Both the position numbers and the translations under genes were made by a program. A DNA stretch of 64,000 nt, from positions 64,001 through 128,000 of the forward strand of contig CAVYBH010000015.1 in NCBI GenBank assembly GCA_963766715.1, given 5' to 3'. This document shows positions 10,817 through 58,434 of this stretch, piece after piece. Each line of letters opens with the position of its first letter. Within the stretch, counting starts at the first letter, position 1. The DNA comes from an uncultured delta proteobacterium (GTDB taxonomy: Bacteria; Myxococcota; Myxococcia; Myxococcales; Anaeromyxobacteraceae). The notes beneath the pieces were generated by a model that was given only the letters and a program-made list of their open reading frames with translations, had not been told where the DNA came from and searched no databases.

Positions 10817-11238
10817 CTAGCGCCTTGCGCTTGGCGTCGACTTCCTTGGCCAGCTCCTCGATCTTCGGGCTCGGCGACCTTGGCGCCCTCGGCGGCCTTC
10901 TCGTCGGTGGGCTTGCCGGTCATGTGCGCGGCGCCGGGCGCCCAGCCCGGGGTGACCGTCGCGGCCAGGTCCTTCGCCGACCGGTTGAACGCGCCGGTGA
11001 CGCCGCCGACCATGGTCTTCGCCGTCAGGTACAGGCCGATGAAGGGGAGGAACACCACCATGAGGCCGCCGAGCACCGGCATCAGCGCCAGCGCCGCCGC
11101 CGTGTTCACCTTCACGTAGTGCTCCGAAGACTTGCCGGGCAGCCGCTCGCCGTCGCGCGCGATGGGGAAGATCTCCCAGTTGCTCTTGGAGAGGTAGTAG
11201 CCACCGGGAACCGCGCTGCCGCCGTTGATCGTCTTCAT
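10817..11238 (-). CDS. Small membrane protein of unknown function, copy 1 (frameshift near 10865)
   Basis: MKTINGGSAVPGGYYLSKSNWEIF...ALMPVLGGLMVVFLPFIGL; RBS AAAGGGAG; near-identical copy at 58499-58914. Confidence 0.8.
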
Positions 11239-43030: not shown

Positions 43031-43046
43031 GACTTCGCCCGTGAGA

Positions 43047-43085
43047 CGACGCGCCGGCGGACCCGAGCGGCTCGCCGGCGCGTCG
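43047..43085 (+). terminator. 13-bp stem hairpin downstream of the Tsx-like gene
   Basis: CGACGCGCCGGCG ... CGCCGGCGCGTCG. Confidence 0.55.
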
Positions 43086-43145
43086 CATGCAGGTCCCTTT
43101 TCCGCTAGATTCCCTGGCTCGAATCCCCCGACGAGGAGATCCCAC

Positions 43146-44144
43146 ATGCGGAAGATGCTGCTCGGCCTCCTGGCCTCCCTCCTGGTGCTCAACGTCGCCG
43201 CCGCGGCGCCGAAGTCGAAGGTGCGCATCGCGCTGATCGTGGAGTCGACGGTCGACGACAAGGGCTGGTGCCAGGCCATGCACGACGCCATCACGTCCGT
43301 GCAGAAGAAGTACGGGCCGGGGCTCGTCGAGTACGGGTACAGCGAGAAGATGAAGCCGGTGGACGCCGGGTCGGCCGCGCGCCAGTACGCGTCCAAGGGC
43401 TTCGACGTCATCATCGCGCACGGCGCCCAGTACAAGAACCTGATCCTCGAGATGGCCGAGGAGTTCCCCAAGACCACCTTCGTCTTCGGGACCAGCGCCG
43501 AGGTCGGGCCGAAGAACGTCTTCACGTACATGCCGCAGAGCGAGGAGACCGGATACCTGAACGGGCTCATCGCCGGCGCGGTCACGAAGACCAACGTGGT
43601 GGGGCTGGTGGGCCCGGTCGACGGCGGCGACGCCGCCCGGTACGACCGGGGCTTCGTCCTGGGCGTGAAGGCCGCGAACCCGAAGGCCGACGTCAAGGTG
43701 GCCCACACCGGGAGCTTCGGCGACTTCGTGAAGGCCGGAGAGCTGGCGCAGACCCAGATCAAGGCGGGCGCCGACGTCCTCACCGGCTCGTCCCAGCAGG
43801 CGCTCGGCGCGCTGCGCGCGGTGGCCGCCTACAAGGAGAAGAAGCTCTGGTGGGTCGGACAGGACCTCGCCCAGCTCAAGATGCCCGAGTCGGCGTGGGT
43901 CATCGCCGCCTCGAGCTACAACTACGCGCCGGTCATCGAGAGCATCGTCGACCGCCGGCAGGCCGGCATCCTCGGGGGCGAGAACATCCCCCTCAACTTC
44001 GCCAACGGCGGCTTCGTCTTCGAGTTCAACCCCGCGGTGGGTCCGCCGGTCGTGACGAAGGAGCTCCGGGACCGGGTCGAGGCCGCCAGGGCCGCCCTCG
44101 CCTCGGGCAAGCTCACGCTCGACTGGAAGAGCATCAAGTTCTGA
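43146..44144 (+). CDS. BMP-family ABC transporter substrate-binding protein
   Basis: Signal peptide; DDKGWCQAM, DVIIAHGAQY, GYLNG, GADVL; RBS GAGGAG. Confidence 0.88.
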   Translation: MRKMLLGLLASLLVLNVAAAAPKSKVRIALIVESTVDDKGWCQAMHDAITSVQKKYGPGLVEYGYSEKMKPVDAGSAARQYASKGFDVIIAHGAQYKNLILEMAEEFPKTTFVFGTSAEVGPKNVFTYMPQSEETGYLNGLIAGAVTKTNVVGLVGPVDGGDAARYDRGFVLGVKAANPKADVKVAHTGSFGDFVKAGELAQTQIKAGADVLTGSSQQALGALRAVAAYKEKKLWWVGQDLAQLKMPESAWVIAASSYNYAPVIESIVDRRQAGILGGENIPLNFANGGFVFEFNPAVGPPVVTKELRDRVEAARAALASGKLTLDWKSIKF

Positions 44145-44166
44145 GGGCCTGGCCCCTGGAACACGC

Positions 44167-45688
44167 ATGAATCGAGCCGATCCGCGAGCTCGCGCTCGAG
44201 GGGATCACCAAGCGCTTCCCGGGCGTGCTGGCCTGCAACCGGGTCTCGCTCGAGGTTCGCCGCGGAGAGGCGCTGGCGCTCGTCGGGGAGAACGGCGCCG
44301 GCAAGTCCACGCTGATGAACATCCTCGCCGGGCTCTACCAGCCCGACGAGGGGCGCATCCTGGTGAACGGCGAGCCGGTCCACTTCACCTCCCCCGCCGA
44401 CGCCTTCGATCGCGGCATCGGGATGGTGCACCAGAACTTCATGCTGGTCCCCAGCATGACGGTGGCCGAGAACGTGGCCCTCGGCATGAAGACCCTCCAC
44501 CGGGGCTTCCGGCTCGACGTGAAGGAGGCGCGGCGGCGGGTCCTCGAGGTCTCGGCCCACCACGAGCTGCCGGTGAACCCGGACGCCCCGGTCTGGCAGC
44601 TCTCGGTCGGGGAGCAGCAGCGGGTCGAGCTGGTGAAGACGCTGTGCCTGGGCGCTCGCCTGCTCATCCTGGACGAGCCCACCTCCGCGCTGACGCCGCA
44701 GGAGACCGACGATCTCCTCGAGCGGCTCGCGCGGATGATGGCCGAGCTGTCGATCATCTTCATCAGCCACAAGCTGAACGAGGTGAAGGCCCTCTCCGAC
44801 CGGGTGACCATCCTCCGTCACGGCGAGGTGGTCTTCCACGGCAGCACGGTGGACCACTCCACCTCCGAGCTGGCCGCCCTGATGACGGGGCGCGACGTGA
44901 TCCAGCCGCGCAACGAGCATTCCGGCGCGCCGGGCAAGGAGATCCTCTCCGTGCGGGACCTCCGGGTCCGCGGCGATCGCGGCCACCTGGCGCTCGACGG
45001 CCTCGACCTGGACGTGCGGGCCGGCGAGATCCTGGGCCTGGCCGGGGTCTCCGGCAACGGGCAGCGCGAGCTGGCCGACGCGCTCGCCGGGCTCCGCCCC
45101 GTCGAGTCCGGCTCGATCCGCCTCGACGGCGCCGAGATCTCCGGATCCTCCCCGCGCGCCATCATCGACAAGGGCATGGGCTACGTCCCCGAGGATCGGC
45201 ACCACGAGGGGATCGTCCCGTCCTTCTCGGTGGAGGAGAACCTGGTCCTGAAGGACTTCGCCTCCCCGCGCTTCAGCCGCGGCGGCTTCCTGCGGCTCGG
45301 GGACATCCACCGGAACGCCGACGAGCTGCGCACGCGCTTCGACATCCGCTGCTCCTCCACCTCGGCGGCGGCGGGCACCCTCTCGGGCGGGAACATCCAG
45401 AAGGTCATCCTGGCGCGCGAGCTGGTCCGCGGGCCCAAGGCGCTGGTGGCGGTCTACCCGACGCGCGGCGTGGACATGGGCGCCGCCGAGTTCATCCACG
45501 GGCAGCTCCTCGCCCTGCGCCGGAGCTCGGTCGGCATCCTCCTCGTCTCGGAGGAGCTCGAGGAGATCATGAACCTCTCCGACCGGATCGCCGTCATCTA
45601 CAAGGGGCGCATCCTGGAGGTGCTCGCCTCCCGCGACGCCACCCGGCAGAAGCTCGGGCTCCTCATGGCCGGGGTGCCCCTTGGGTAG
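44167..45688 (+). CDS. ABC transporter ATP-binding protein (frameshift near 44180)
   Basis: [36 protein letters not shown]. Confidence 0.9.
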
Positions 45689-46804
45689 GCGCTTCCGGAT
45701 GCTCTACGCGGGCGGGGTGATCGCGGTGGCCGCCCTCGCGGCCGCCTCGCTCGTGGCGCTCGTGCTCGCGGCCATCGGCGCGAGCCCCTGGGCCACCTTC
45801 GGCGTCATCCTCACCGGACCGCTCCAGGATCTCTTCGGCGTGACCGAGATCCTGGTCCGCGCCGTGCCGCTCACCCTGGTGGCGCTGGGCGTCGCCATCT
45901 CCTTCCGGAGCGGCATCCTCAACATCGGCGCGGAGGGGCAGATCCTGGTGGGGATCCTCTGCGCCACCGGCGTGGCGCTGTGGCTTCCGCAGTGGCCCCG
46001 CGTCGGCGCTCCTGCCGCTCTGCCTCGCCGCCGGCGCCGTGGGCGGCGCGCTCTGGGGCGGGATCGCCGGCGTGCTGCGCGCGAAGCTCGACGTGAACGA
46101 GATCCTGAGCACGGTGATGCTCAACTACATCGCCGCGCAGCTCTACACCTTCATGCTCCGCGGGCCGCTCATCGATCCGGCCGAGATGATGACCGGGTCG
46201 GGCACCCCGCAATCGATGCGGCTCGCGCGTGCGGCCTGGCTCGATCGCCTGGTTCCGGGGACGAGGCTCCACACCGGGCTCGTGATCGCGCTCGTCCTGG
46301 CCGCCCTCGTCTGGGTGCTCCTCTGGCGGACCACGGCGGGCTTCCGGATGCGGGCCTCCGGCGCGGGGAGCAAGGCCGCCCGCTACGCCGGCATCCCCGT
46401 CGAGCGATCGCTCGTCGTCGCCATGCTCCTCGCCGGCGGCTTCGCCGGGCTGGCCGGCGCCATCGAGGTGCTCGGCGTGCACCACCGGGCCATCGAGAAC
46501 ATCTCCTCCGGGTACGGGTTCGCCGCGATCGTGGTGGCCCTCTTCGGCGGGCTCCACCCTGCCGGCATCGTGCCCGCCGCGGTCTTCTTCGGGCTGCTCC
46601 TCGTGGGCGCGGACATGACGCAGCGCTCGGCCGGCGTCCCGGCCAACATGGTGCTCGTGCTCCAGGGCGCCATCATCCTGGCCATCGTCTCGGCCCGGAT
46701 GTACGTCGACAATCCCGTACACCCGGCAGCGGGCCGCGCGCTTCCTCGAGCGCTTCCTGCCCGGGAGGTCCGCCGGCGGCGCGGCCGGGGAGCCCGGGCC
46801 ATGA
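45681..46804 (+). CDS. ABC transporter permease (frameshifts near 46005 and 46720)
   Basis: LNIGAEGQ, NEILSTVMLNY, AARYAG, GYGFAAIVVALFG. Confidence 0.82.
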
Positions 46805-47748
46805 CGCTCCAGCAGATGGCCTACGACATCCTCTCGCTCGGCGTCCCCTTCTCGGTGGCCCTGCTGCTCGCCGCGCTGGGCGAGATGTTCAACCAGCGCG
46901 CGGGGGTCTTCAACCTGGGGTGCGAGGGCATCATGAGCATGGGGGCCTTCGTCGGCTTCCTGCCCGCGTACCTGGCCCGCTCCGGCTCGCTGGGGCCCTG
47001 GGCCGACCTGCTCGGATTCGCGCTCGCGGCGCTGGCCGGCGTGCTCCTCGGGCTGCTCTTCGGGCTCGTGACCGTCACCTTCCGCGCCCCGCAGGGCATC
47101 GCCGGCATCGGCCTCGCCATGCTCGGCACCGGCGTCGCCGGCACGCTGTTCCGCCACTACGTCGGCGGCGTGACGGGCGTGGAGGGCGTGGCCGCGATGC
47201 CGATCCCGTGGCTCTCGCGCATCCCCTTCCTGGGCGGCGTCCTCTTCCACCACAACCCGGTGGTCTACGTCGCCTTCCTCCTGGTCCCGGCGAGCTGGTA
47301 CCTGCTCTACCGCACCTCCTGGGGGCTCCGGGTCCGGGCGGTGGGCACGCATCCCCGCGCGGCGGACACCATGGGGATCGACGTGAACCGGGTGCGCTAC
47401 CAGGCGCTCATGCTGGGCGGGGCCATGGGCGCCATGGGCGGCGCCTACCTGGCCCTGTGCCAGGCCAAGATGTTCGCCGACGACCTGGTGGCGGGGCGAG
47501 GGTTCATCGCGGTGGCGCTCGTCTACTTCGGCCGGTGGAGCCCCTGGGGCGTCGCCGGCGGCGCGCTGCTCTTCAGCCTCGCCCAGTCCCTGCAGCTCTC
47601 CCTCCAGGTCTGGGGGATCAAGTTCCCGTACGAGTTCGCCGTGATGCTCCCGTACGTCCTCGTGATCGTCGTGCTGGCGCTGGCCCGGTCCCGGACGCTC
47701 GGCCCCACGGCGCTCGGGAAGGCGTTCAACCGGGAGATGCGGATCTGA
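46801..47748 (+). CDS. ABC transporter permease
   Basis: QRAGVFNLGCEG, GRGFIAVALVYFG, LPYVL, PTALGKAF. Confidence 0.88.
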   Translation: MTLQQMAYDILSLGVPFSVALLLAALGEMFNQRAGVFNLGCEGIMSMGAFVGFLPAYLARSGSLGPWADLLGFALAALAGVLLGLLFGLVTVTFRAPQGIAGIGLAMLGTGVAGTLFRHYVGGVTGVEGVAAMPIPWLSRIPFLGGVLFHHNPVVYVAFLLVPASWYLLYRTSWGLRVRAVGTHPRAADTMGIDVNRVRYQALMLGGAMGAMGGAYLALCQAKMFADDLVAGRGFIAVALVYFGRWSPWGVAGGALLFSLAQSLQLSLQVWGIKFPYEFAVMLPYVLVIVVLALARSRTLGPTALGKAFNREMRI

Positions 47749-49408
47749 AGCCCGCCTGGAACATCGGCGCGAGCCCGACCACCAGCGCGCAGCCGATGAC
47801 GTTGTACCAGAGGTAGCCCACGTTCCCGAAGGCGGCGAGCGCCAGCACCGCGGCCTCGCCGGCGAGCGTGGCGGCGAGCGCGGCGCGCCCCTGGACGCGC
47901 GCGAGGAAGAAGCCCACCAGGAAGACGCCGAGCATGGGCCCGTAGAAGAGCGAGCCCACCACGTTCACCGCCTGGATGAGGTTGTCGAGGAGCGACGCGA
48001 ACCCCGCGAAGCCCACCGCGACCGCGCCCCACGCGGCGGTCGCGATCCGGGCCACGCGGAGCGTCTGGGCGTCGGTCGCGCCGGGGTGGCGCGGCTTGTA
48101 GAAGTCGACCACGGTGGTGGCGCCGAGCGACGAGAGCGCCGCCGAGTTCGCCGACATGGCCGCCGAGAGGATCACCGCCACGAGGAGCCCGACGAGGCCC
48201 CGGGGAAAGTGATCGAGCACGAACCGGAGGAAGATGAAGTCGGAGTCCTTCCGGTCGGCTCCGGGCAGGGTTCGCGTGGCGAGCGACCCGAACTCCTTGC
48301 GGATCGATTCCATCCGCGATTCCTGCACCCGCACCTCGGCCCTCGCCGCGGCGCTCTCGGCCGGCGCCGCCGACGGCGCGAGCATCCGATCGATGGCCAC
48401 GCGCTTCTCCGCGAAGGCAGCCCCGTAGGCGGTCTCGAGGCGCGCCACGTCGGCGCCGCTCCGCTCCCGGACCCCCTCGAGCGTGGCCCGGTCGAAGAAG
48501 AGCGGCGGCGGGCTCAGCTGGTAGAAGACGAAGACCATGACCCCGATGAAGAGGATGAAGAACTGCATCGGGACCTTCAGGAAGCCGTTCATGAGCAGGC
48601 CGAGCCGGCTCTGCGAGAGCGGCCCGCCCGCCAGGTAGCGTTGCACCTGCGACTGGTCGGTGCCGAAGTAGGCGAGCTGGACGAAGAGCCCGCCGAGCAG
48701 CCCGGACCAGAGCGTGTAGCGCGTGTCGACGCGCGCCGAGAGGTCGACGGCGTGGAGCTTGCCGAGCGCGCCGGCGAGCTCGATGCCCTGGCCCAGCGAG
48801 ACGCCGCTCGGGAAGCTCGCCACCGCGGTGACGAGCGCCGCGAGCAGCCCCACGAAGATGACCACCATCTGCGCGGACTGCGTCCGGCTCACCGCCCGGC
48901 TGCCGCCCGCCACGGTGTAGGCGATGGTGATGCCGCCGAGCAGGAGGTTCGTCCAGCCCGCCGGCCAGCCCAGCACCGCAGAGAGCACCAGCGCCGGCGC
49001 GTAGATGGCGAGCCCGGAGGCGAGGCCGCGCGAGACCAGGAAGAGCAGCGCCACGAACTGGCGCGTCCGGCGATCGAAGCGCCTCTCGAGGTACTCGTAG
49101 GCCGTGTAGACGTTCAGGCGGTGGTAGATGGGCAGGAAGACCACCGACAGGATCACCATCGCGACGGGCAGCCCGAAGTAGAACTGCACGAAGCCCACGC
49201 CGTCCACGTAGGCCTGGCCGGGAACCGACAGGAAGGTGATGGCGCTCGCCTGGGTGGCGATCACCGAGAGCCCGATGGTCCACCAGCGCAGGTCGGCCCC
49301 GGCGCGCAGGTAGGCGTCGGTGGTGTGGACGCGGCGGCTCCTCCAGGAGCCGTAGGCCACGATCCCGGCGAGGGTGAGGGCGAGCACCGCCCAGTCGAGG
49401 CCGCTCAC
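47726..49408 (-). CDS. Sodium:solute symporter
   Basis: LDWAVL, ATQASAITFLSVPG, AYEYLERRF, YFGTDQSQVQRYL, ILSAAMS. Confidence 0.92.
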   Translation of the reverse strand: MSGLDWAVLALTLAGIVAYGSWRSRRVHTTDAYLRAGADLRWWTIGLSVIATQASAITFLSVPGQAYVDGVGFVQFYFGLPVAMVILSVVFLPIYHRLNVYTAYEYLERRFDRRTRQFVALLFLVSRGLASGLAIYAPALVLSAVLGWPAGWTNLLLGGITIAYTVAGGSRAVSRTQSAQMVVIFVGLLAALVTAVASFPSGVSLGQGIELAGALGKLHAVDLSARVDTRYTLWSGLLGGLFVQLAYFGTDQSQVQRYLAGGPLSQSRLGLLMNGFLKVPMQFFILFIGVMVFVFYQLSPPPLFFDRATLEGVRERSGADVARLETAYGAAFAEKRVAIDRMLAPSAAPAESAAARAEVRVQESRMESIRKEFGSLATRTLPGADRKDSDFIFLRFVLDHFPRGLVGLLVAVILSAAMSANSAALSSLGATTVVDFYKPRHPGATDAQTLRVARIATAAWGAVAVGFAGFASLLDNLIQAVNVVGSLFYGPMLGVFLVGFFLARVQGRAALAATLAGEAAVLALAAFGNVGYLWYNVIGCALVVGLAPMFQAGFRSASPG

Positions 49409-49503
49409 GGGAACGCCCTCGAGAGCAGCCACAGGAGCGCGATCTCCACGGCGAGCGCCGCGAGCACCAGCGCGTACAGGCGCCCCCAGGACCTAGCGGG
49501 CAT
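49405..49503 (-). CDS. 32-aa single-TM microprotein
   Basis: Manual translation MPARSWGRLYALVLAALAVEIALLWLLSRAFP*; overlaps the upstream stop and the symporter start (GTGA). Confidence 0.7.
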   Translation of the reverse strand: MPARSWGRLYALVLAALAVEIALLWLLSRAFP

Positions 49504-51964
49504 GGTCGAGGAGGTTCGCGAAGAGCCGGAAGGCGCCCGGGACGCCGGCGGGGAGCTGCCGGAAGAAGGAGAGCCCCGTGTAGACGAAGACCCCCTTCCC
49601 GTAGGCGCCGACGAGGAGCGCGCCCTTCTGGGGCTTCTCGCCCGGGTCGTGCATCGACAGCGGCGCCGCGTAGCGATCGTCCCAGGTCTCGGCGAAGTAG
49701 AGCCCGCGCTCCTGGACCCAGCCCGCCCAGTCGGCGGCCTCGATCCGGTTGGGCGTCGAGAGCACCGGGCTCGGCGTGGCCGTCACGGCGGCGTCCTCGT
49801 CGGTGACCCGGCCGCGACCGATGGTGAACGGGTAGGGCCCGATGTCGGGCGGCGCGTTCGAGATCCAGTTGTGGGTCAGGTACTGGACGACCACCGTCCC
49901 GCCGCGCTTCACGTAGGCCATGAGCGGGTCGTGCAGGCCCGCCAGCTGCGGCGTCACGTTGAAGGCCCGGATCCCGAAGACGATGGCGTCGAAGCGGTCG
50001 AGGGGCCGGTCGCGAAGCTCCTGGGGCGTGAGCAGCGTGACCGCGTAGCCCGCCTGGCGGAGCGCGTCCGGCACCTCGTCGCCCGGGCCGGGCACGTAGC
50101 CGATCTCGTGGCGCGCGTGGAGCACGTCGACGCGGGTGAGCCTCACCTCGGCGAGCGGCAGCCAGGTCTGGATGGGGATGTGCGCGTGGTCCACGCGTCG
50201 GACGCCGCGGTCGAAGCGCTCCCCGTCCACGGTGGCGACCGCGAGCAGCCGCCCGGTCGCGGCCGTCCTCGGCGGGGTGACCCGGAAGGTCACCTCCGTC
50301 TCGCCCCCCGCGGCGAGCTGGAACGGGAGGCTGGCCGGGGTGAAGGTGAAGCCCTCGGGAACCTCGAGGGTCACGGTCCCGGTCGCGCCGGAGACGCTCC
50401 GGAGCGTCACCGAGAACGGGCGCGGAGCGGCCTCGGGGAAGAGCAGGAGCTCGCCCCGCGGATCGAGCGTGACGCGCGGAAGGACCTCCACCCGCCGGTA
50501 GCGTTCCCCCTGGACCGGGTCCACCCACTTGAAGACGACCGGGCGGCGGACCCGGAGGGTCTCTCCGCCGATGGAGAGGACGAACTCCGCCTCGAGCGGG
50601 GCCGGCTCCTCCGGGATGCCGGCGAGCGCCGGGTCGGCCACCGGGTAGAGCCCCGGCGTGGCCGCCACCTCGAGCCAGGCCGGGTTCGAATAGCGGGCGT
50701 CCCGGGGAACCTGGATGGCCTCCTTCTGCTCGAACGGCACGTTCGACTGGAGCTTGCGCCCCGGCGAGAGGTCCTTCCCCGGAAGCCTGACCTCGACGAG
50801 GTCGATCGCCACCGGCCGCCGCGCCAGCGCGGTGACGGTGACGGGCAAGGACGCGCCTCGGGAGGTGGCCGGCGCCCCGGCCGCGACCTCGGTGAAGATC
50901 CCGGCGCAGGCCAGGATGGCCGCCTCGATCTCCGCCAGCTTCTGCGCCTTCCACGGATTCCCGGGAAGCCGCGCCAGCTCGGCCCGCGCCGCGAGCAGCC
51001 CCGGGATCGCCGCCTCGGGCGTGGCGGCACGGAAGGCGGCGCGCGCCCGGGTGAGCTCGGCGACCAGCCGGGCCGTGCCCGGGACCCGCGTCCAGTCGAG
51101 GGTCAGTCCATCGAACGGCGACGCCTGCATGGGCTCGCCGGCGATCGGCTTGAAGAACTCGAGCACGGGTCCGCGGCGACGAGCGGCCCCGAAGCCCTGG
51201 CTCTTGTGGTTGCTGCGGCTGTCGGCGGCGAGCTCGCCGTAGGAGAGCCCGAGCCACGGGTCGTATCCGCCCACGTCGACGCGGGGGAAGGCGGAGAGCT
51301 CGCTCTCCGTGGCGCCCCAGCCCGCGGTCTGGTTCCAGACCACCCGCCTCGCCTTCCAGGCTCCGAGTCGCCGGTGCTCGGCATCGGGCATGTAGGCGGG
51401 GTCGGCGGCGAGCGCGAAGGCGTCGGCCGCGAGCTTCGCCGATGCGATGTGGTGACCGTGGGTGTCGAGCCCGTCGAGCGGGAAGCGGGTGATGACCACG
51501 TCGGGGCGCAGGCGCCGGATGGCGAGGACCACGTCGGCCAGCACCGCGTCCCGGCCCCAGATGGCGAGCGACTCCTCGGCGCTCTTCGAGTAGCCGAAGT
51601 CGCGAGCGCGGGTGAAGAGCTGCTCGGCGCCGTCCTGGGCGCGGGCCGCCAGCAGCTCCTGGGTGCGGATGAGCCCGAGGCCTGGACCGAGGTCGGGGCC
51701 GATGAGGTTCTGTCCGCCGTCCCCGCGGGTGATCGACAGGTAGCCCGCTCCGAGCAGCTTCCCGTTCGCCAGGTAGGCGAGGAGCCGCGTGTTCTCGTCG
51801 TCGGGGTGGGCCGCCACGAAGAGCACGTTGCCCACCACGAGGAGCCGATCGAGCTGCCGCTCGAGCCGCGCGGCGTCCGGCTGGGGGGGGCGCAAGGGCG
51901 GCGCCGCGACGGCTGTGGAGGCGAGCAGGAGGGCGGCCATGGCGGCAGGAGGGGTTCGGGGCAT
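49493..51964 (-). CDS. Secreted PIG-L/LmbE-family deacetylase/amidase with C-terminal Ig-like and GATase-like domains
   Basis: Signal peptide; AAHPDDEN, TRGDGGQN, ARDFGYSK, HGHH, RSNHKSQG; C-terminal WVQERGLYF, FFRQLPAGVPGA. Confidence 0.88.
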   Translation of the reverse strand: MPRTPPAAMAALLLASTAVAAPPLRPPQPDAARLERQLDRLLVVGNVLFVAAHPDDENTRLLAYLANGKLLGAGYLSITRGDGGQNLIGPDLGPGLGLIRTQELLAARAQDGAEQLFTRARDFGYSKSAEESLAIWGRDAVLADVVLAIRRLRPDVVITRFPLDGLDTHGHHIASAKLAADAFALAADPAYMPDAEHRRLGAWKARRVVWNQTAGWGATESELSAFPRVDVGGYDPWLGLSYGELAADSRSNHKSQGFGAARRRGPVLEFFKPIAGEPMQASPFDGLTLDWTRVPGTARLVAELTRARAAFRAATPEAAIPGLLAARAELARLPGNPWKAQKLAEIEAAILACAGIFTEVAAGAPATSRGASLPVTVTALARRPVAIDLVEVRLPGKDLSPGRKLQSNVPFEQKEAIQVPRDARYSNPAWLEVAATPGLYPVADPALAGIPEEPAPLEAEFVLSIGGETLRVRRPVVFKWVDPVQGERYRRVEVLPRVTLDPRGELLLFPEAAPRPFSVTLRSVSGATGTVTLEVPEGFTFTPASLPFQLAAGGETEVTFRVTPPRTAATGRLLAVATVDGERFDRGVRRVDHAHIPIQTWLPLAEVRLTRVDVLHARHEIGYVPGPGDEVPDALRQAGYAVTLLTPQELRDRPLDRFDAIVFGIRAFNVTPQLAGLHDPLMAYVKRGGTVVVQYLTHNWISNAPPDIGPYPFTIGRGRVTDEDAAVTATPSPVLSTPNRIEAADWAGWVQERGLYFAETWDDRYAAPLSMHDPGEKPQKGALLVGAYGKGVFVYTGLSFFRQLPAGVPGAFRLFANLLDHAR

Positions 51965-52007
51965 TTGGTGGGAAGCACGCGGCCTTGCGGTTAGCTTCCT
52001 TGTCTAA

Positions 52008-53611
52008 ATGAACATGGACTTCTTTGCCTCGTTCATCGACGGGGCAAGCGCCGCCACGGACTTGCTGCCCGCGAGGCCTCTCGACGAGGCGGCCTGGGCG
52101 GCGGCCGCCCGGCGAGCCAGCGGCCGGGGCCTGGCCCCCGGGCTGCTCGCCGAGATCCGGCGGCAATCCGCCGCGCTTCCCCCCTCGCCCGCCCGGGAAC
52201 GCAGCCTGGAATCGCTCTCCCGGCCGGACGCCACGGTCGTCGTGACCGGCCAGCAGGTGGGGCTCTTCCTCGGGCCGCTCTACACCCTGCACAAGGCGGC
52301 GACGGTGGTGGCCCGCGCCCGGATGGTCGAGCGGCTCACCGGCCTGCCCTGCGTCCCGGTGTTCTGGCTCCAGACCGAGGACCACGACTGGGCCGAGATC
52401 GCGACCGCCGAGGTCCTCGTCCCGGCAGGTCGCCAGGTGCTGGCGCTCCCGCCGGAGTCCCCGCAGGCGGCGCGCCTCTCCCTCTCCCACCGCACCCTGC
52501 CCGCGGAGGTGGAAGGACTCGTCTCGAGGCTGACGGAGCTCCTCGAGCCCCTGCCCTTCGCGGCCGAGGTGACGGGGCTCCTCGGGCGCCACTACCGCGC
52601 CGGCGCCGCGCCTGGCGCCGCCTTCGCCGGGGTCCTGGCCGAGCTCTTCTCCCGCGAGGGGCTCGTCGTCCTCGATCCCCGGACGCCCGCGATCTCCCGC
52701 CTGGCGGCGCCCGTGCTGCGGCGAGCCGTCGTCGAGCACGCCGAGATCGGGGCGCTCCTCGGCGCCCGGGCGGCCGAGCTCGCCGCGCGGCACTTCGCCG
52801 AGCAGGTGCATACCCGCGGCGAGACCTCGCTCGCCTTCTTCCATCCGCGCGGGCCGGGCGGTCCGCGCTACCGGCTGGTGGGCGACGGGGCGGGGTATTC
52901 CACCCCGGAGGGGCCGGTCTCGCGCGCCGCCCTGCTCGGGCAACTCGAGCAGGACCCGCTCTGGTTCAGCACCTCCGCGCTCCTGCGGCCGCTCGTGCAG
53001 GACACGCTCCTCCCCACGGCCGCCTACGTCGGCGGCCCGGCCGAGTGCACCTACTTCGCCCAGCTCCCGCCCCTCTACGCGCGCTTCGGTCTCGAGCTGC
53101 CCATGATCGCGCCGCGCGCCCGGCTGCGGCTGGTCGTTCCGAAGGCGCGCCGCGAGCTCGAGCGGCTCGGGCTGCGGACCGCCGACACCGACCGGCCGCG
53201 CGACGTGCTGCTCCAGGAGCTCGTCGCCCGCCCGCCCGACCTGCCTCCCGGGGACGCGCTGCGCGAGCGTCTGCTCGGCTCGCTCGAGCGCGAGCTCTCG
53301 GCCCTCTCTCCGGCGCTCGCCGCCCTCGACCCCCTGCTCGAGCGGAACGTCGCGGCGGACCGCGGGACCACGCCACCTTCGCGGTGGGCCGGCTCGTCGC
53401 CGGGGTGGAGCGGGCGCTCGCCAGGAAGGACGAGGTGACCGTGAAGCGGCTCGATCGGCTGCTCGAGGCGCTCCGCCCGTCCGGCAAGCCGCAGGAGCGG
53501 GTCTACGCCTTCCCGGCGCTCGCGGCGCGCGCCGGCTGCCGCGTGCTCGTCGACGCCATCGTCGCCGCGGCCGAGCCCCTCTCCCCCGCGGTGAGGGACG
53601 TGAACCTGTGA
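52008..53611 (+). CDS. bshC: Bacillithiol biosynthesis cysteine-adding enzyme BshC (frameshift near 53360)
   Basis: VVTGQQVGLFLGPLYTLHKA, PVFWLQTEDHDWAE, LRPLVQDTLLP, YVGGPAE..YFAQ, KPQERV. Confidence 0.92.
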
Positions 53612-54781
53612 AGGCGCTGCGCATCGGCATCGCCTGCTTCCCGACGGTGGGCGGCAGCGGCGTGGTCGCCTCCGAGCTCGCCACCCACCTCGGTCGGCGC
53701 GGCCACCAGGTCCACGTCTTCTCCTCGAAGGTCCCGTTCCGCCTGGCCCGGGGGGAGCCGCGCGTCGAGGTGCACGTCGTCGATCCGCAGCGGCGCCCGC
53801 CCCTGGAGAACGACGCGTACTCGCACGCGCTCGCGGGCGCCATGGCGGAGGTGGCGGTCACGGGCGGGCTCGACGTCCTGCACGTGCACTACGCCCTGCC
53901 CCACGCGCCCAGCGCGCTGGCCGCGCGCCAGATCGTCCAGGCCGGCGGGCGGAGGGCCCCGCGGCTCGTCACCACCCTCCACGGCACCGACGTGACGAAC
54001 GTCGGGGAGGACCCGGCGCTGCGGATGGTCACCCGCCACGCCGTGCTGTCGAGCGACGTCGTGACCACGCCCTCCGCCTGGCTGCGGGAGGCGGCCCTCG
54101 GGAACCTCGAGCTTCCTGCCGGCACGCGGATCGAGGTGGTCCCGAACTTCGTCGACCTGGAGGCCTTCCACCCCTCGCCGGACCGCCCGGACCTGCGCGC
54201 GCTGTTCCCGCGGGAGCGATGGGACGGCGCGGAGCGTCCCGGCGTCCTGCTGCACGCCTCGAACTTCCGGAAGCTGAAGCGGGTCGGCGACGCGGTGACC
54301 GCCCTCGCGGAGTTGGTCCGGACCCGTCCCGCGGTGCTCGTGCTGGTCGGGCGACGGCCCCGAGCGGGCGAGCGTCGAGGAGCTGGCCGCGTCCCTCGGG
54401 CTCTCCGGCCGCGTCGCCTTCCTGGGGGAGCGCCCCGATCTCGGGCCGCTCTTCTCCCAGGCCGACCTCTTCCTGCTCCCCAGCGATCAGGAGAGCTTCG
54501 GGCTCGCTGCGCTCGAGGCGCTCGCGTCGGGCGTTCCCGTGGTGGCGAGCCGCGTGGGTGGGCTCCCCGAGGTCGTGGTCGACGGCACGACCGGCCTGCT
54601 GGTCCCGCCCCACGCGCCCCACGCCCTCGCGGCCGCCGTCCTGGAGCTCCTGGGCGACGAGCCGCGCCGGACGGCCATGGGGCGGGCGGCGCGCGAGGAC
54701 GCGGCCACCCGCTTCCGGCCGGAGCCGGTGGTGGATCGCTACGAGGCGATCTACCGCGAGGCCGCCGAGCGCTGGGACTGA
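53608..54781 (+). CDS. bshA: N-acetyl-alpha-D-glucosaminyl L-malate synthase BshA (frameshift near 54355)
   Basis: IGIACFPTVGGSGVVASEL, LHVHYALPHA, TTLHGTDVT, HASNFRKLKR, ESFGLAALEA. Confidence 0.92.
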
Positions 54782-54782
54782 G

Positions 54783-55634
54783 CTACTTCTTCCAGTCGGC
54801 GATGGCCTTCGCGATGTCGTCGGCGAGCGGGAAGCTCTGCGACTTCTTCCCGAGCTCCTGGCTGCGCTCGGCCACCTTCACGGCCTCCGCCTTCTTGCCC
54901 GAGGCGGCGAGCAGCTGCGCCTTCACCCACAGGTTGTACCACTCCTCCTTCAGGCCGATGGACCGGTCGACGAGCTGCATCGCGAGCGCCGGCTCGGTCT
55001 TCGACTCGAGCAGGTAGCGGGCCGCGTTCGCGTAGGGGCGCCAGTCGTCGGACTTCAGGGACTGGATGGCGGAGAGCACGGCCGCGCGGGTGGCGACCTC
55101 GAACTTCACTCCCACGCGGAGCGTGTCCCACTCGAGCGCGAGCGTGCCGCCGTCGTCGTTGAAGTCGAGGATCTCGAACGCCAGGTGCTCGCGCGCCGGG
55201 ATGGCCGTCGCCGTGGCCGGGACGCGCAGGAGGTCGTTCTCCGGCTTGTAGTCGTAGGCGCCCCAGAGCTTCGTGTCCTTGTTGAGGATGAAGGTCCAGC
55301 CGGCCTTGGTGGGCAGCAGGAAGAGGCAGTAGGTGCCCGCCGGGACGGCCTTCCCGCCGATGGTGGCCGCGGTCGAGAGCGTGAGCTTCGAGCACTCGTT
55401 GGCGCCGGCCCGCCACACCTCGTCGAAGGGAACGACGTCGCCCCAGATCTTCCGCCCCTTCACGGCCGGGCTCGAGTAGGTGACGGTGACGTCGGTGAGC
55501 CCGACCGTCTGCTTCACCGTCGCGTTCGGGCTGGGCTTCGGGAGCACGAGCTTGGGCGGCTCCTGGGCCGCCGTGCTTCCGCAGACGAGGGCTCCGGCGA
55601 GGGCGACGAGGGCGAGGCGGGAAGGAGCGTTCAT
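54783..55634 (-). CDS. DUF2911 domain protein with C-terminal TPR-like region
   Basis: Signal peptide; PSPNATVKQTVG, YSSPAVKGR, VWRAGANE, AGTYCLF, WGAYDY. Confidence 0.88.
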   Translation of the reverse strand: MNAPSRLALVALAGALVCGSTAAQEPPKLVLPKPSPNATVKQTVGLTDVTVTYSSPAVKGRKIWGDVVPFDEVWRAGANECSKLTLSTAATIGGKAVPAGTYCLFLLPTKAGWTFILNKDTKLWGAYDYKPENDLLRVPATATAIPAREHLAFEILDFNDDGGTLALEWDTLRVGVKFEVATRAAVLSAIQSLKSDDWRPYANAARYLLESKTEPALAMQLVDRSIGLKEEWYNLWVKAQLLAASGKKAEAVKVAERSQELGKKSQSFPLADDIAKAIADWKK

Positions 55635-55724
55635 TCGTTCTCCGGGGTTGGGGTCGGCTGGCGCGGCGCAGACATAAGCGGCTCGCGGACCGACTTCAGT
55701 CCTTCCCGCCTCGAGGCCTGGCGG

Positions 55725-58373
55725 TCAGCGGGGCGGCGCCGCGGGCGCCACGGCCACCATCGGGATGTCGCCGAGGTCGACGGGCGCATCCGGCCGGGCC
55801 CGTGCGGTGACGGTGACGGGCGAGTAGCCCAGGGCCGCGGCGCTGACCTGGTGGTCGCCCTCGGACGTGATCCGCGTGAAACGGCCGGTCGCGCCGACCC
55901 CGTAGCGGCGGGAGGCGGTCCCGTCGACGAGGACGCGCGCCCGCGTCAGCGCCTTCCCGGTGGCGGCGTCGACGAGGCGGCCGGTCACCGTGCACGCCGG
56001 CGAGAGCAGGACCTCGACCGCCTTCGACTCCCCTGCCCCGGCCGAGACCTGCGCGTCCCCCACCCGGCCGTCGGCGGTCTTCACGTGAAGCGCGATCTGA
56101 CCCGGGGCGACGTCGTCGAGGTCGAAGGTGGCGTTCGCGAACTGCTGCTCCGAGGAGCCTCCGGGCAGGAAGGTGCGCTGGCTCACCGTGACGCCGAAGG
56201 ACTCCGGCGCGGGCTCGCCCAGGAGCCGCCCGTGGAGGCTCGCCGCGGGCTGGAGCTGGATCAACGCGTCGGCGACGGGCGGGGTGACCGTGGCGCTGCC
56301 CGTCCGCCCGCCGATTCGCGCGTTCACCTGGACCGGTGCGGACGCGGCGGACGACAGCGAGAAGGCGCCCTCCGGGTCGGTCTGGGTGGCCTGGAAACCC
56401 GAACCGGGCGAGCCGATCCAGACGGCGGCGCCGATGGCCGGGGCCGCGCCCGGCTCGAGCACGTGACCCGACACCGTCGGCGGGGGGTCGGCGGGAAGGA
56501 CCAGGTTCGCCAGGACGCGCTGACCCGCCGCGAGCTGGACCGTGGCGAGCGCGGCGGGGCGACCCGCGAAGCGGAACGTGCCGCCGGGCCGGATGGCGTG
56601 GACCCCGTAGGAACCGGGCGCCAGGGCGAGGAGATAGGCCCCGTTCGCGTCGGACGTGATCTGGCGCGCCTCGCCCGGTCGGGGCGGTCCGCTCCCGGTG
56701 GTGGTCCACACCATCGCGCCGGGCACCGGGTCTCCCACGGCGTCGAGGACCGCGCCCGAGACCACTCCGCCCTCCGAGAGGACCAGGTCGACGCTGGTGG
56801 TCTCTCCTTCCTCGACCGCGACCACGTTCACCGCGGCGGGCGACCCGAGGTCGCGGCGACCGCTCACGCGGAGCTGGCCTGGCGTGACCCCCTCGATCCG
56901 GAACCGGCCGCTCGAGTCGGTCCGGGCGGCGACCGCGGCGGCCTGGCCTGCGGCTCCTCCGCCTCCTGCGCCCCCGCCCCAGGCCCCGGGCCCGGCGCCC
57001 CGGCCCCACGGACCGTCGGCCGCGACCAGCGCCCCGCTCACCGGGAGCCCCTCCGTGTCGGTCACCGTTCCCTCCAGGACCGACGGCGGGACGAGCGTGA
57101 CGTCGAGGCGGAAGCGATCGCCTTGGCGGAGGTTCACTGCCGGGACCTGGGCGTTCCCGTGGCCGGTCGCGGAGATTGAGACCGCGTGGAGGCCCGGCAG
57201 GAGCCCCGTGAGCTCGTAGCTCCCGTCGGCCCGGGACGTCGTCCGGGCCGGATTCGCCGCGTCGCCCTGGAAGGCGACGGAGACCGACGCTCCTCGAACG
57301 GGACCCTTCGCCGAGCCGACGACTCCGGAGATCGAGGCCGCGGGCCCGAGCGCGATCTCGACGCCGCGCACGGTGGCTCCAGCGGCCACGGGGAGGACCC
57401 TGCCGGCCGAGCCGGTCTCGGCCCCGTGCCGGGCGAAGGCGCGGTGAAGCCCCGGCTCGACGTCGGCCGCAAACCCGCCGCCCGGCCCCGCCTCGACGAC
57501 CACCGGCTCTCCCGCCCCCATCACGGTGACCGTCGCCCCCGGCGCCGGCCGGCCGTCCCGCGTGACCGTTCCCTCGACGGTTCCGGCCGCCCCGAGGTCG
57601 ATGCGAAGCTCGGAGCCGTGCGGCACCGCCACGTCGTGCCGGTGACCGGCCGCGTGCCCCTCTGCGCGCGCCTCCACCTCGAAGCGCCCCGGCTGCAGGC
57701 CGGCGATGCGGAACTCCCCGCGCTCGTTCGAACTCGCGGTGGCGCGCTCCTCCGGAGGGAGCTCGAGCCTTCGCAGCCCGGCGCCGCGCCGGACGGGCGT
57801 GGCCACCACGGTCGCGAAGGGCACGGGTTCGCCGCCCTTCCTCTCGACCGTGCGGCCAGCCAGGGTGGCCGCCGCGGCGAGCTTCAGCTCGACGGGGGTC
57901 CTGGGCTCCCCGGCGGGCCGGACCGCCTCCACGAAGCCTCGCGCGAGACCCGGCGCCGACGCGACGACCAGGTACGATCCCGCGGCAGCCGCGAGGAAGA
58001 CGGTCCCGTCGGGCCCGCTCTGTCCCGCGCCCGCCGGCCTCCATCCCGCCGCACCGGGCGCATCCGCCCGATTGTAGAGCCGGATCTCGGCGCCCGGGAC
58101 GGGGCCGCCGGTGGCGCTCACCAGGACCTGGAATCCCCCGTCCTCGGTCGGGTTCCCGGGGGCGGCGATGGCCGGATCCGGAATCTTCCCTGCCGCAGGG
58201 TCCGCCGTCCTGGCCACGGCGGCGGCGGGCGAACCCGGCTCGGATGCCGGCGTCCTGGCCCCCGGACCGTGGTGGCCCGTCGCCAGGAAGTACCCGGCGA
58301 GCACGAGCGCCACGACGACGACCGCGACCGCGAGGATCGGCAACGCTTTCCGGGTGCGCATCCGGCGTAGCAA
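55725..58373 (-). CDS. Membrane-anchored protein with multiple carboxypeptidase regulatory-like (Cna-B-type) repeats
   Basis: N-terminal TM; repeated G.V...G.PV.GA.V and TD..G.F.I.GL.PG motifs. Confidence 0.8.
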   Translation of the reverse strand: MLRRMRTRKALPILAVAVVVVALVLAGYFLATGHHGPGARTPASEPGSPAAAVARTADPAAGKIPDPAIAAPGNPTEDGGFQVLVSATGGPVPGAEIRLYNRADAPGAAGWRPAGAGQSGPDGTVFLAAAAGSYLVVASAPGLARGFVEAVRPAGEPRTPVELKLAAAATLAGRTVERKGGEPVPFATVVATPVRRGAGLRRLELPPEERATASSNERGEFRIAGLQPGRFEVEARAEGHAAGHRHDVAVPHGSELRIDLGAAGTVEGTVTRDGRPAPGATVTVMGAGEPVVVEAGPGGGFAADVEPGLHRAFARHGAETGSAGRVLPVAAGATVRGVEIALGPAASISGVVGSAKGPVRGASVSVAFQGDAANPARTTSRADGSYELTGLLPGLHAVSISATGHGNAQVPAVNLRQGDRFRLDVTLVPPSVLEGTVTDTEGLPVSGALVAADGPWGRGAGPGAWGGGAGGGGAAGQAAAVAARTDSSGRFRIEGVTPGQLRVSGRRDLGSPAAVNVVAVEEGETTSVDLVLSEGGVVSGAVLDAVGDPVPGAMVWTTTGSGPPRPGEARQITSDANGAYLLALAPGSYGVHAIRPGGTFRFAGRPAALATVQLAAGQRVLANLVLPADPPPTVSGHVLEPGAAPAIGAAVWIGSPGSGFQATQTDPEGAFSLSSAASAPVQVNARIGGRTGSATVTPPVADALIQLQPAASLHGRLLGEPAPESFGVTVSQRTFLPGGSSEQQFANATFDLDDVAPGQIALHVKTADGRVGDAQVSAGAGESKAVEVLLSPACTVTGRLVDAATGKALTRARVLVDGTASRRYGVGATGRFTRITSEGDHQVSAAALGYSPVTVTARARPDAPVDLGDIPMVAVAPAAPPR

Positions 58374-58434
58374 ACACCAAGGCGCCGGAGAAGGACCCCG
58401 GGTTCATGCTTCTTCACACGCGAGGAAACGAAGA

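Follow-up and report, generated by a model that had tools for sequence, protein, structure and literature searches.

Can bacillithiol be taken apart outside the cytoplasm and its sugar core recovered for re-use? The question is raised by a locus within the 64,000-nucleotide (nt) stretch of contig CAVYBH010000015.1 (assembly GCA_963766715.1, an uncultured member of the Anaeromyxobacteraceae, phylum Myxococcota) that we analysed here and refer to as the window. In this locus two genes of bacillithiol synthesis, bshC and bshA, lie next to genes for a large PIG-L/LmbE-type hydrolase with a signal-peptide-like N-terminus, a 32-amino-acid (aa) membrane peptide, a sodium:solute symporter (SSS) and a DUF2911 protein. 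It has been argued that no low-molecular-weight thiols are more widespread in bacteria than those of the bacillithiol type (PMC6282198), and a 2018 review calls it unclear whether cells export or import bacillithiol or its disulfide at all (PMC5790435). We found that enzyme, peptide, symporter and DUF2911 protein form a widespread conserved module and that this module is genetically tied to the bacillithiol synthesis genes. We propose, with a probability of about 0.45, that the module hydrolyses a bacillithiol-type compound outside the cytoplasm and re-imports the glucosamine-malate (GlcN-malate) core for BshC. A conserved LmbE enzyme that is predicted to be exported and has its own symporter gives the question of bacillithiol export and import concrete genes, in culturable Bacteroidota. 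The locus consists of the following features:

47726..49408, minus strand: sodium:solute symporter, 560 aa from the GTG at 49408 (PF00474, TIGR00813); the longest open reading frame (ORF) opens at 49432
49405..49503, minus strand: 32-aa single-helix membrane peptide, predicted accessory subunit of the symporter (conserved motif, complex prediction)
49493..51964, minus strand: 823-aa PIG-L/LmbE-type zinc hydrolase with a signal-peptide-like N-terminus (PF02585, PF10633 or NPCBM_assoc, structure model)
51965..52007, no strand: divergent intergenic region of 43 bp (sequence)
52008..53611, plus strand: bshC, in two frames as assembled (TIGR03998; break near 53351-53362)
53608..54781, plus strand: bshA, in two frames as assembled (TIGR03999; extra base in the GGG run 54348-54350)
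54783..55634, minus strand: DUF2911 protein with a signal-peptide-like N-terminus and a C-terminal TPR-like tail (PF11138; convergent on bshA)

The G+C content of the region, about 72-77%, gives rise to many spurious ORFs, and the real genes were picked by family scans together with a codon-position frame scan. The ORFs that the first-pass annotation of this DNA had assigned to symporter, peptide, enzyme and DUF2911 protein (47726..49432, 49405..49503, 49493..51964 and 54783..55634, all on the minus strand) were recovered, as was its picture of an overlapping three-gene set facing bshC-bshA across a 43-bp divergent gap (51965-52007). The stop codon of the enzyme gene and the ATG of the peptide gene lie within an 11-nt overlap, and the peptide stop and a GTG start of the symporter share a GTGA; a GTGA overlap also joins the bshC stop to the bshA start. 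The DUF2911 gene does lie 1 bp beyond bshA, as annotated, with bshA ending at 54781 and the DUF2911 stop codon beginning at 54783. No clear common operator was evident in an intergenic alignment of 4-5 relatives, among which the 43-bp gap is conserved patchily.

To assess the relationship between the module and bacillithiol synthesis, we counted both in sampled genomes (G-numbers; G000 is the genome of this window) and sampled loci (L-numbers); the co-occurrence counts ignore kinship among genomes. Of 151 Myxococcota genomes, 33 have BshC and 32 have the enzyme; the 31 that have both are exactly the ones with DUF2911. Thus, BshC occurs in 31 of the 32 genomes with the enzyme versus 2 of the 119 without it, and judging by coordinates the enzyme gene and bshC lie on one contig no more than 5 kb apart in 29 of the 31 genomes. 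In G093, the Myxococcota genome that has the enzyme and lacks BshC, BshA is encoded at a contig edge, immediately upstream of the enzyme. None of BshC, enzyme and DUF2911 was found in nine other genomes of the window's family, so that the cluster behaves as an accessory island. Among 151 Verrucomicrobiota genomes the enzyme is present in seven, and BshA scores above its curated cut-off in those seven and in G423, that is, in 7/7 genomes with the enzyme versus 1/144 of the others. The phylogenetic profiling that the first-pass annotation had suggested was positive: the same 31 of 151 Myxococcota genomes contain BshC, enzyme and DUF2911, and BshA accompanies all seven Verrucomicrobiota enzymes. 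The module was not found in any of the 116 Myxococcota and 143 Verrucomicrobiota genomes without bsh genes. Planctomycetota have a BshC-like match in 15 of 16 genomes with an enzyme-like match versus 65 of 135 others, just two of the 16 enzyme-like matches being close orthologues. Among 201 Bacteroidota genomes BshC was found in 193 and the enzyme in 55, the latter in none of the eight BshC-negative genomes. In four further genomes the enzyme is unlinked, and each of them has a BshC match that exceeds the cut-off.

Linkage of the module to bsh genes occurs in three gene orders. One is divergent, as in this window; the second is DUF2911-bshC-(bshB)-bshA-enzyme-SSS (L092-L094); and the third, DUF2911-enzyme-SSS-256-aa ORF-small PIG-L-bshA, runs in a single direction in 6/7 Verrucomicrobiota loci. 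The seven Verrucomicrobiota genomes, which have the enzyme and no TIGR03998 (BshC) match, had been considered as a counter-example. This was dropped: BshA, a small PIG-L gene and the 256-aa protein adjoin the module. The latter protein is conserved, carries GQQPCGF and HDSDHD motifs and is encoded where bshC is expected (L081:6383-7153(-), L084:12873-13649(+), L086:5951-6721(-), L087:12956-13744(+)). Its likeness to BshC is weak, with no Pfam match, a BLASTP E-value of 0.054 and an hhalign E-value of 0.003 at 10% probability.

Relatives of the enzyme number in the thousands, with full lengths of 810-875 aa; 7924 of 8000 scored candidates have E ≤ 0.001, and about 11000 stored stretches of the genome collection match the enzyme. 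Their names are merely 'LmbE family' or 'PIG-L family deacetylase', and full-text literature searches (subscription-only papers being outside their scope) returned no paper on the module. We kept 80 loci, mainly from Bacteroidota and also from Myxococcota, with single ones labelled Opitutaceae and Planctomycetota. A symporter gene lies downstream on the same strand within 3.2 kb in 63/80 loci (55 of the 62 with at least 2.5 kb of downstream sequence), DUF2911 is found in 40/80, and bshC or bshA in 6/80, every one of them Myxococcota-type.

Loci of Chitinophagales have additional neighbours. In 22 loci the gene immediately upstream of the enzyme gene, on the same strand, encodes an exported Peptidase_M14 protein of about 846 aa (e.g. 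L071:5238-7778, L026:5433-7973, L027:3549-5264, L036:2113-2688). A gamma-glutamyltranspeptidase is encoded within 6 kb in 17 loci and a DUF1572/DinB protein within 7 kb in nine. Many Chitinophagaceae loci (e.g. L023:10432-10608, L047:3195-3371, L071:10443-10619) also encode a second conserved membrane protein of about 55 aa, between the enzyme and the small membrane peptide.

The enzyme itself matches PF02585 (PIG-L) with 53.5 bits (cut-off 28.2) over residues 48-182, in addition to PF10633 (NPCBM_assoc). Residues H53-P54-D55-D56, H169 and H172 are invariant in 47 enzyme sequences. The HXDD+H metal-binding motif has been defined with a spacer of 97-148 residues (PMC4101496), and with 116 residues between D56 and H172 the enzyme fits this definition. 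In the structure model (predicted local distance difference test score (pLDDT) 90.3, predicted template modelling score 0.88) residues 1-23, of low confidence, precede an alpha/beta domain that extends to about residue 290; after a helical linker come beta-sandwich domains, which reach about residue 610, and the C-terminus forms another alpha/beta domain. Foldseek matched the first domain to MshB (1q7t_B, 2.1e-8), BshB BC1534 (2ixd_B, 7.7e-7, TMt 0.71) and TT1542 (1uan_B, 1.0e-6), and also to LnmX and chitobiose deacetylase. The enzyme is predicted from this model to have the LmbE fold, Rossmann-like alpha/beta as in solved members, and from model and motif it looks catalytically active. At the sequence level, the single enzyme sequence had no match among solved structures, and a profile gave weak PIG-L rows only. 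Leads for the middle and C-terminal domains are Glyco_hydro_42M (E 0.092, weak) and ThuA and LBP_M (scores below 0.9).

By a crude hydrophobicity count, a hydrophobic 10-mer is present in 65/65 members of the enzyme family, at a median of 45 residues before the HPDDE motif, and from such hydrophobic segments at the N-terminus, together with the low confidence of residues 1-23 in the model, the enzyme is predicted to be exported from the cytoplasm. The review in which the motif is defined (PMC4101496) does not contain the words 'signal peptide', 'periplasm' or 'secreted'. Against the curated thiol-pathway families the enzyme reaches 34.2 bits for TIGR03446 (Mca; cut-off 277) and 28.6 bits for TIGR03445 (MshB; cut-off 224).

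Is the enzyme then simply the deacetylase of bacillithiol synthesis? According to the first-pass annotation no small bshB gene is present, and a genome search for bshB1 had been suggested. No match to TIGR04001 (BshB1) at E ≤ 0.001 was found in G000, which is 84.6% complete, and the whole assembly contains no second PIG-L domain, its one match being the big enzyme. No BshB1 match was found in G070 either, nor any other PIG-L protein among the matches listed for that genome, and G080 and G095 each encode one PIG-L protein of about 50 bits elsewhere in the genome, below the cut-off of 182.5. These three are the nearest cluster-bearing relatives of G000, and in all four genomes bshC abuts bshA. 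The lack of a small bshB thus holds here and in the three relatives; in general it does not, because in at least 18 of the 31 clusters from Myxococcota the gene directly following bshC is a small PIG-L gene (a count from the 150 of 199 matches listed). The only one of these tested, from G148, is a true BshB1 (292.3 versus 182.5 bits), whereas with TIGR04001 the orthologous big enzymes reach 21.5 bits in G070 and 25.5 bits in G148. Since a small PIG-L gene follows bshC in so many clusters and the tested one is BshB1, the big enzyme is, as far as profile scores tell, an addition to BshB and not its usual replacement.

These data bear on a rival explanation, namely that the 823-aa enzyme is the GlcNAc (N-acetylglucosamine)-malate deacetylase of this lineage, either because its N-terminal segment is non-exporting or because deacetylation takes place outside the cytoplasm and the symporter returns the product. 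The retained catalytic motif and the gene content of the four genomes just described, in which bshA and bshC are kept and abut, speak for it. However, enzymes of the bshB-less lineage keep their signal-peptide-like N-termini, an unrelated deacetylase could have assumed the BshB step, and small PIG-L genes stand beside the big enzyme in at least 18/31 Myxococcota clusters and in 6/7 Verrucomicrobiota loci, which implies that the two are not redundant in general. We consider this explanation quite unlikely. A bshB-less lineage in which bshC abuts bshA also fits a second source of GlcN-malate, as the recycling proposal would have it.

A carrier for such a compound would be the symporter, which matches PF00474 (SSF) with 128.7 bits (cut-off 22.8) and TIGR00813 with 225.4 bits (cut-off 184). 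Its start is more likely at 49408 than at 49432, because of the GTGA overlap with the peptide stop and because its homologues open with MSxLDW. The closest solved chains are SMVT (1.1e-43), NIS, SMCT1 and SiaT (5.2e-38), ahead of vSGLT (3.3e-28); by these sequence matches the symporter is nearer to carboxylate/anion carriers (SMVT, SMCT1, SiaT) than to glucose carriers. Directly before the symporter gene, at least 56 of 76 loci have a small ORF whose product has a hydrophobic helix after a W-x3-Y motif, and residues W6, Y10 and L17 of the peptide do not vary among 19 sequences, which come from Myxococcota-type and Bacteroidota loci. Structure prediction for the peptide-symporter complex gave a score of 0.74, against 0.00 for the best of three controls. 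Of 157 solved complexes 116 attain this mark, as do 2 of 215 mismatched pairs; the calibration is rough because we used our own alignments. Contact agreement between runs was at least 93% and the partner pLDDT at least 80, with predicted contacts at symporter residues 71-89, 210-223 and 268-283. The 32-aa peptide is predicted from these models to bind the symporter. Small accessory subunits of SSS carriers include MAP17, which acts with SGLT2, and the small partners of ActP- and PanF-type carriers, and the likeness lies in a single-helix peptide encoded with, or bound to, an SSS-family carrier.

The DUF2911 protein matches PF11138 with 167.9 bits (cut-off 27), and its model (pLDDT 89.6) comprises a beta domain at residues 37-180 and six helices at 182-282, the TPR-like tail. 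Of 40 DUF2911 proteins, 35 pass the crude N-terminal hydrophobicity count, and the protein is predicted from such segments to be exported. A sequence search of the PDB with DUF2911 returned no match; an atlas search and, for the model, Foldseek matched the TPR tail only, with no Foldseek match at E ≤ 0.001.

In the loop that we propose, bacillithiol, its disulfide, S-conjugates or GlcNAc-malate would be the substrate of the enzyme outside the cytoplasm and GlcN-malate the product of hydrolysis. The symporter with its peptide would bring this anionic sugar acid inward, where BshC would add cysteine anew. The data fit either amide cleavage (of conjugates, Bca-like) or deacetylation of GlcNAc-malate (BshB-like). 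That the module is restricted to bsh-bearing genomes agrees with a product usable only by cells that have BshC. The idea of thiol recycling, put forward in the first-pass annotation, gains from the co-occurrence and from the linkage in three gene orders, and loses the missing bshB as a general trait. If the proposal is true, the module would represent a periplasmic branch of bacillithiol metabolism, give the neighbours of DUF2911 a first function and supply a new small SSS subunit. A more far-reaching version is doubtful: that diderm bacillithiol users run an extracytoplasmic cycle, in which bacillithiol, its disulfide or its conjugates arrive in the periplasm, the enzyme splits off cysteine or acetyl there and the peptide-aided symporter recaptures glucosamine-malate, and that in bshB-less lineages this loop, or scavenged bacillithiol debris of neighbours, is the sole source of substrate for BshC.

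Comparison with known systems shows what such a loop would share with them. With Bca/BshB2 and Mca the enzyme has in common the PIG-L/LmbE zinc hydrolase domain, the HXDD+H motif and the setting in a thiol pathway. As described in PMC5790435, Bca/BshB2 and Mca free the amino-sugar core for re-use, and Bca and Mca act on conjugates formed inside the cell, the Cys S-conjugate products being exported afterwards. Bca and Mca are small (about 220-290 aa), whereas the module enzyme has 823 aa, a signal-peptide-like N-terminus, about three extra domains and a dedicated symporter, and it scores far below the Mca family cut-off (34.2 versus 277 bits). BshB1 and MshB have, by prediction, the same fold and the same metal and base residues. 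However, their HxxH motif is HPDH and that of the module enzyme HGHH, and the module enzyme coexists with true BshB1 in relatives. By analogy, the loop would correspond for bacillithiol to what gamma-glutamyltranspeptidase does in the periplasm when it breaks down glutathione: there too a thiol cofactor is cut outside the cytoplasm and its parts are retaken. The enzyme family and the bond cleaved are unrelated, and the analogy would be functional only. According to PMC5790435, E. coli exports glutathione to its periplasm, and for bacillithiol no such process is established.

Several observations weigh against the recycling proposal. The catalytic domain is not specifically BshB- or Bca-like, the Mca and MshB matches given above being the only NCBIfam matches of the enzyme. 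We identified no bacillithiol exporter, and the loop alone leaves the deacetylation of the BshA product in the bshB-less lineage unexplained. Two Myxococcota genomes (G125, G127) have bsh-type genes without the module, and one Planctomycetota genome (G633) has an enzyme-like match without a BshC-like one. In Bacteroidota the near-universal presence of BshC leaves co-occurrence with little power, 138 BshC-bearing genomes lack the enzyme, and the bsh genes lie at a distance from the module. In Myxococcota and Verrucomicrobiota the genes form one cluster and kin genomes are not independent, so that co-occurrence may partly reflect joint transfer and loss. Finally, the exported M14 carboxypeptidase and the gamma-glutamyltranspeptidase next to the module in Chitinophagales could point to another class of substrate.

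In a second rival explanation the module handles some other substrate of amino-sugar or glycopeptide type, for example oligomers of chitin or fragments of the cell wall, and its proximity to bsh genes reflects a shared precursor supply or joint transfer and not the chemistry of bacillithiol. It draws on the last observation and on the separation of module and bsh genes in Bacteroidota, as well as on the likeness of the middle and C-terminal domains to glycan-active enzymes (NPCBM_assoc and the leads named above) and on the presence of chitobiose deacetylase among the structural matches. However, general sugar scavenging predicts many carriers without bsh genes, and none was found among the 116 Myxococcota and 143 Verrucomicrobiota genomes of that kind. 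In two phyla where bsh genes are patchy or rare, only genomes that have them carry the module, and it is linked to them in three gene orders. We regard another glycan substrate as unlikely.

The first-pass annotation did not note any frame break in bshC or bshA, but in the sequence as assembled each of them is split over two frames. For bshC, positions 4-451 of TIGR03998 align in frame 52008-53438 (324.9 bits, cut-off 265.8) and positions 457-520 in a second frame ending at 53611. For bshA, positions 2-232 of TIGR03999 align in 53608-54340 (234.1 bits) and positions 236-374 in frame 54299-54781 (146.2 bits), each piece singly below the cut-off of 273.7. The frame breaks are near 53351-53362 in bshC and at the GGG run 54348-54350 in bshA.

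One alternative is that bshC and bshA are real pseudogenes and that the cluster is decaying in this organism, a view compatible with frameshifts in both genes and with the lack of BshC, enzyme and DUF2911 in all nine other genomes of the same family, including a 99%-complete genome of the same genus. We therefore looked at frame switches in general, using a Viterbi frame scan that was trained on the genome's own long ORFs and counts same-strand switches without a nearby stop codon. Genome-wide it found about 1284 switches in 4.2 Mb (0.31/kb), 81% of them +1 shifts, versus 4 in 279 kb (0.014/kb) of 16 high-G+C control loci from other genomes, a rate about 20 times that of the controls. Fourteen switches fall in the window, at 10864, 13127, 20098, 20849, 24887, 26327, 27434, 33413, 34960, 35878, 39037, 46008, 53364 and 54349, and at 0.31/kb about one is expected by chance within the 2.8 kb of bshC-bshA. 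Homopolymer length near switches is about equal to that at random places (3.04 versus 2.96). Public contigs point the same way: the bshC break is spanned by two contigs of at least 95% identity, which stem from two runs, and in both the absence of two bases at 53351-53362 restores the frame; in bshA, a contig of about 90% identity is one base shorter at 54348. No contig at 95% identity or more spans the bshA break, and no public run contains more than 0.23 of the sampled words of the stretch. Given the genome-wide rate, the near-identical contigs without the extra bases in bshC and the more distant contig without the base in bshA, the frameshifts are most likely assembly errors, and the pathway genes are therefore probably intact in the organism. 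Breaks aside, both halves of each gene score as good family members, and decay of the cluster is very improbable. The same caveat of assembly frameshifts applies to split genes and apparent pseudogenes anywhere in this genome.

Several observations concern the surroundings of the locus and more remote relatives of the enzyme. Upstream of the DUF2911 gene and on the same strand lies a gene for an 882-aa protein with seven CarboxypepD_reg repeats (55725-58373, minus strand), which is not conserved at the other loci examined. The overlapping ORF 55696-58407 (minus strand, 903 aa) was rejected as an Arg/Gly-rich wrong frame of this gene. On the other side, genes for a Bmp/PnrA-type ABC transporter (binding protein, ATPase and permease; 43041-47748, plus strand) converge on the symporter gene, and the permease gene contains the frameshift-like switch at 46008. 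In Planctomycetota, 14 genomes in the range G509-G635 encode distant relatives of the enzyme, with 31-45% identity over the matched parts and frames of 779-1208 aa; these may constitute a sister family with another role.

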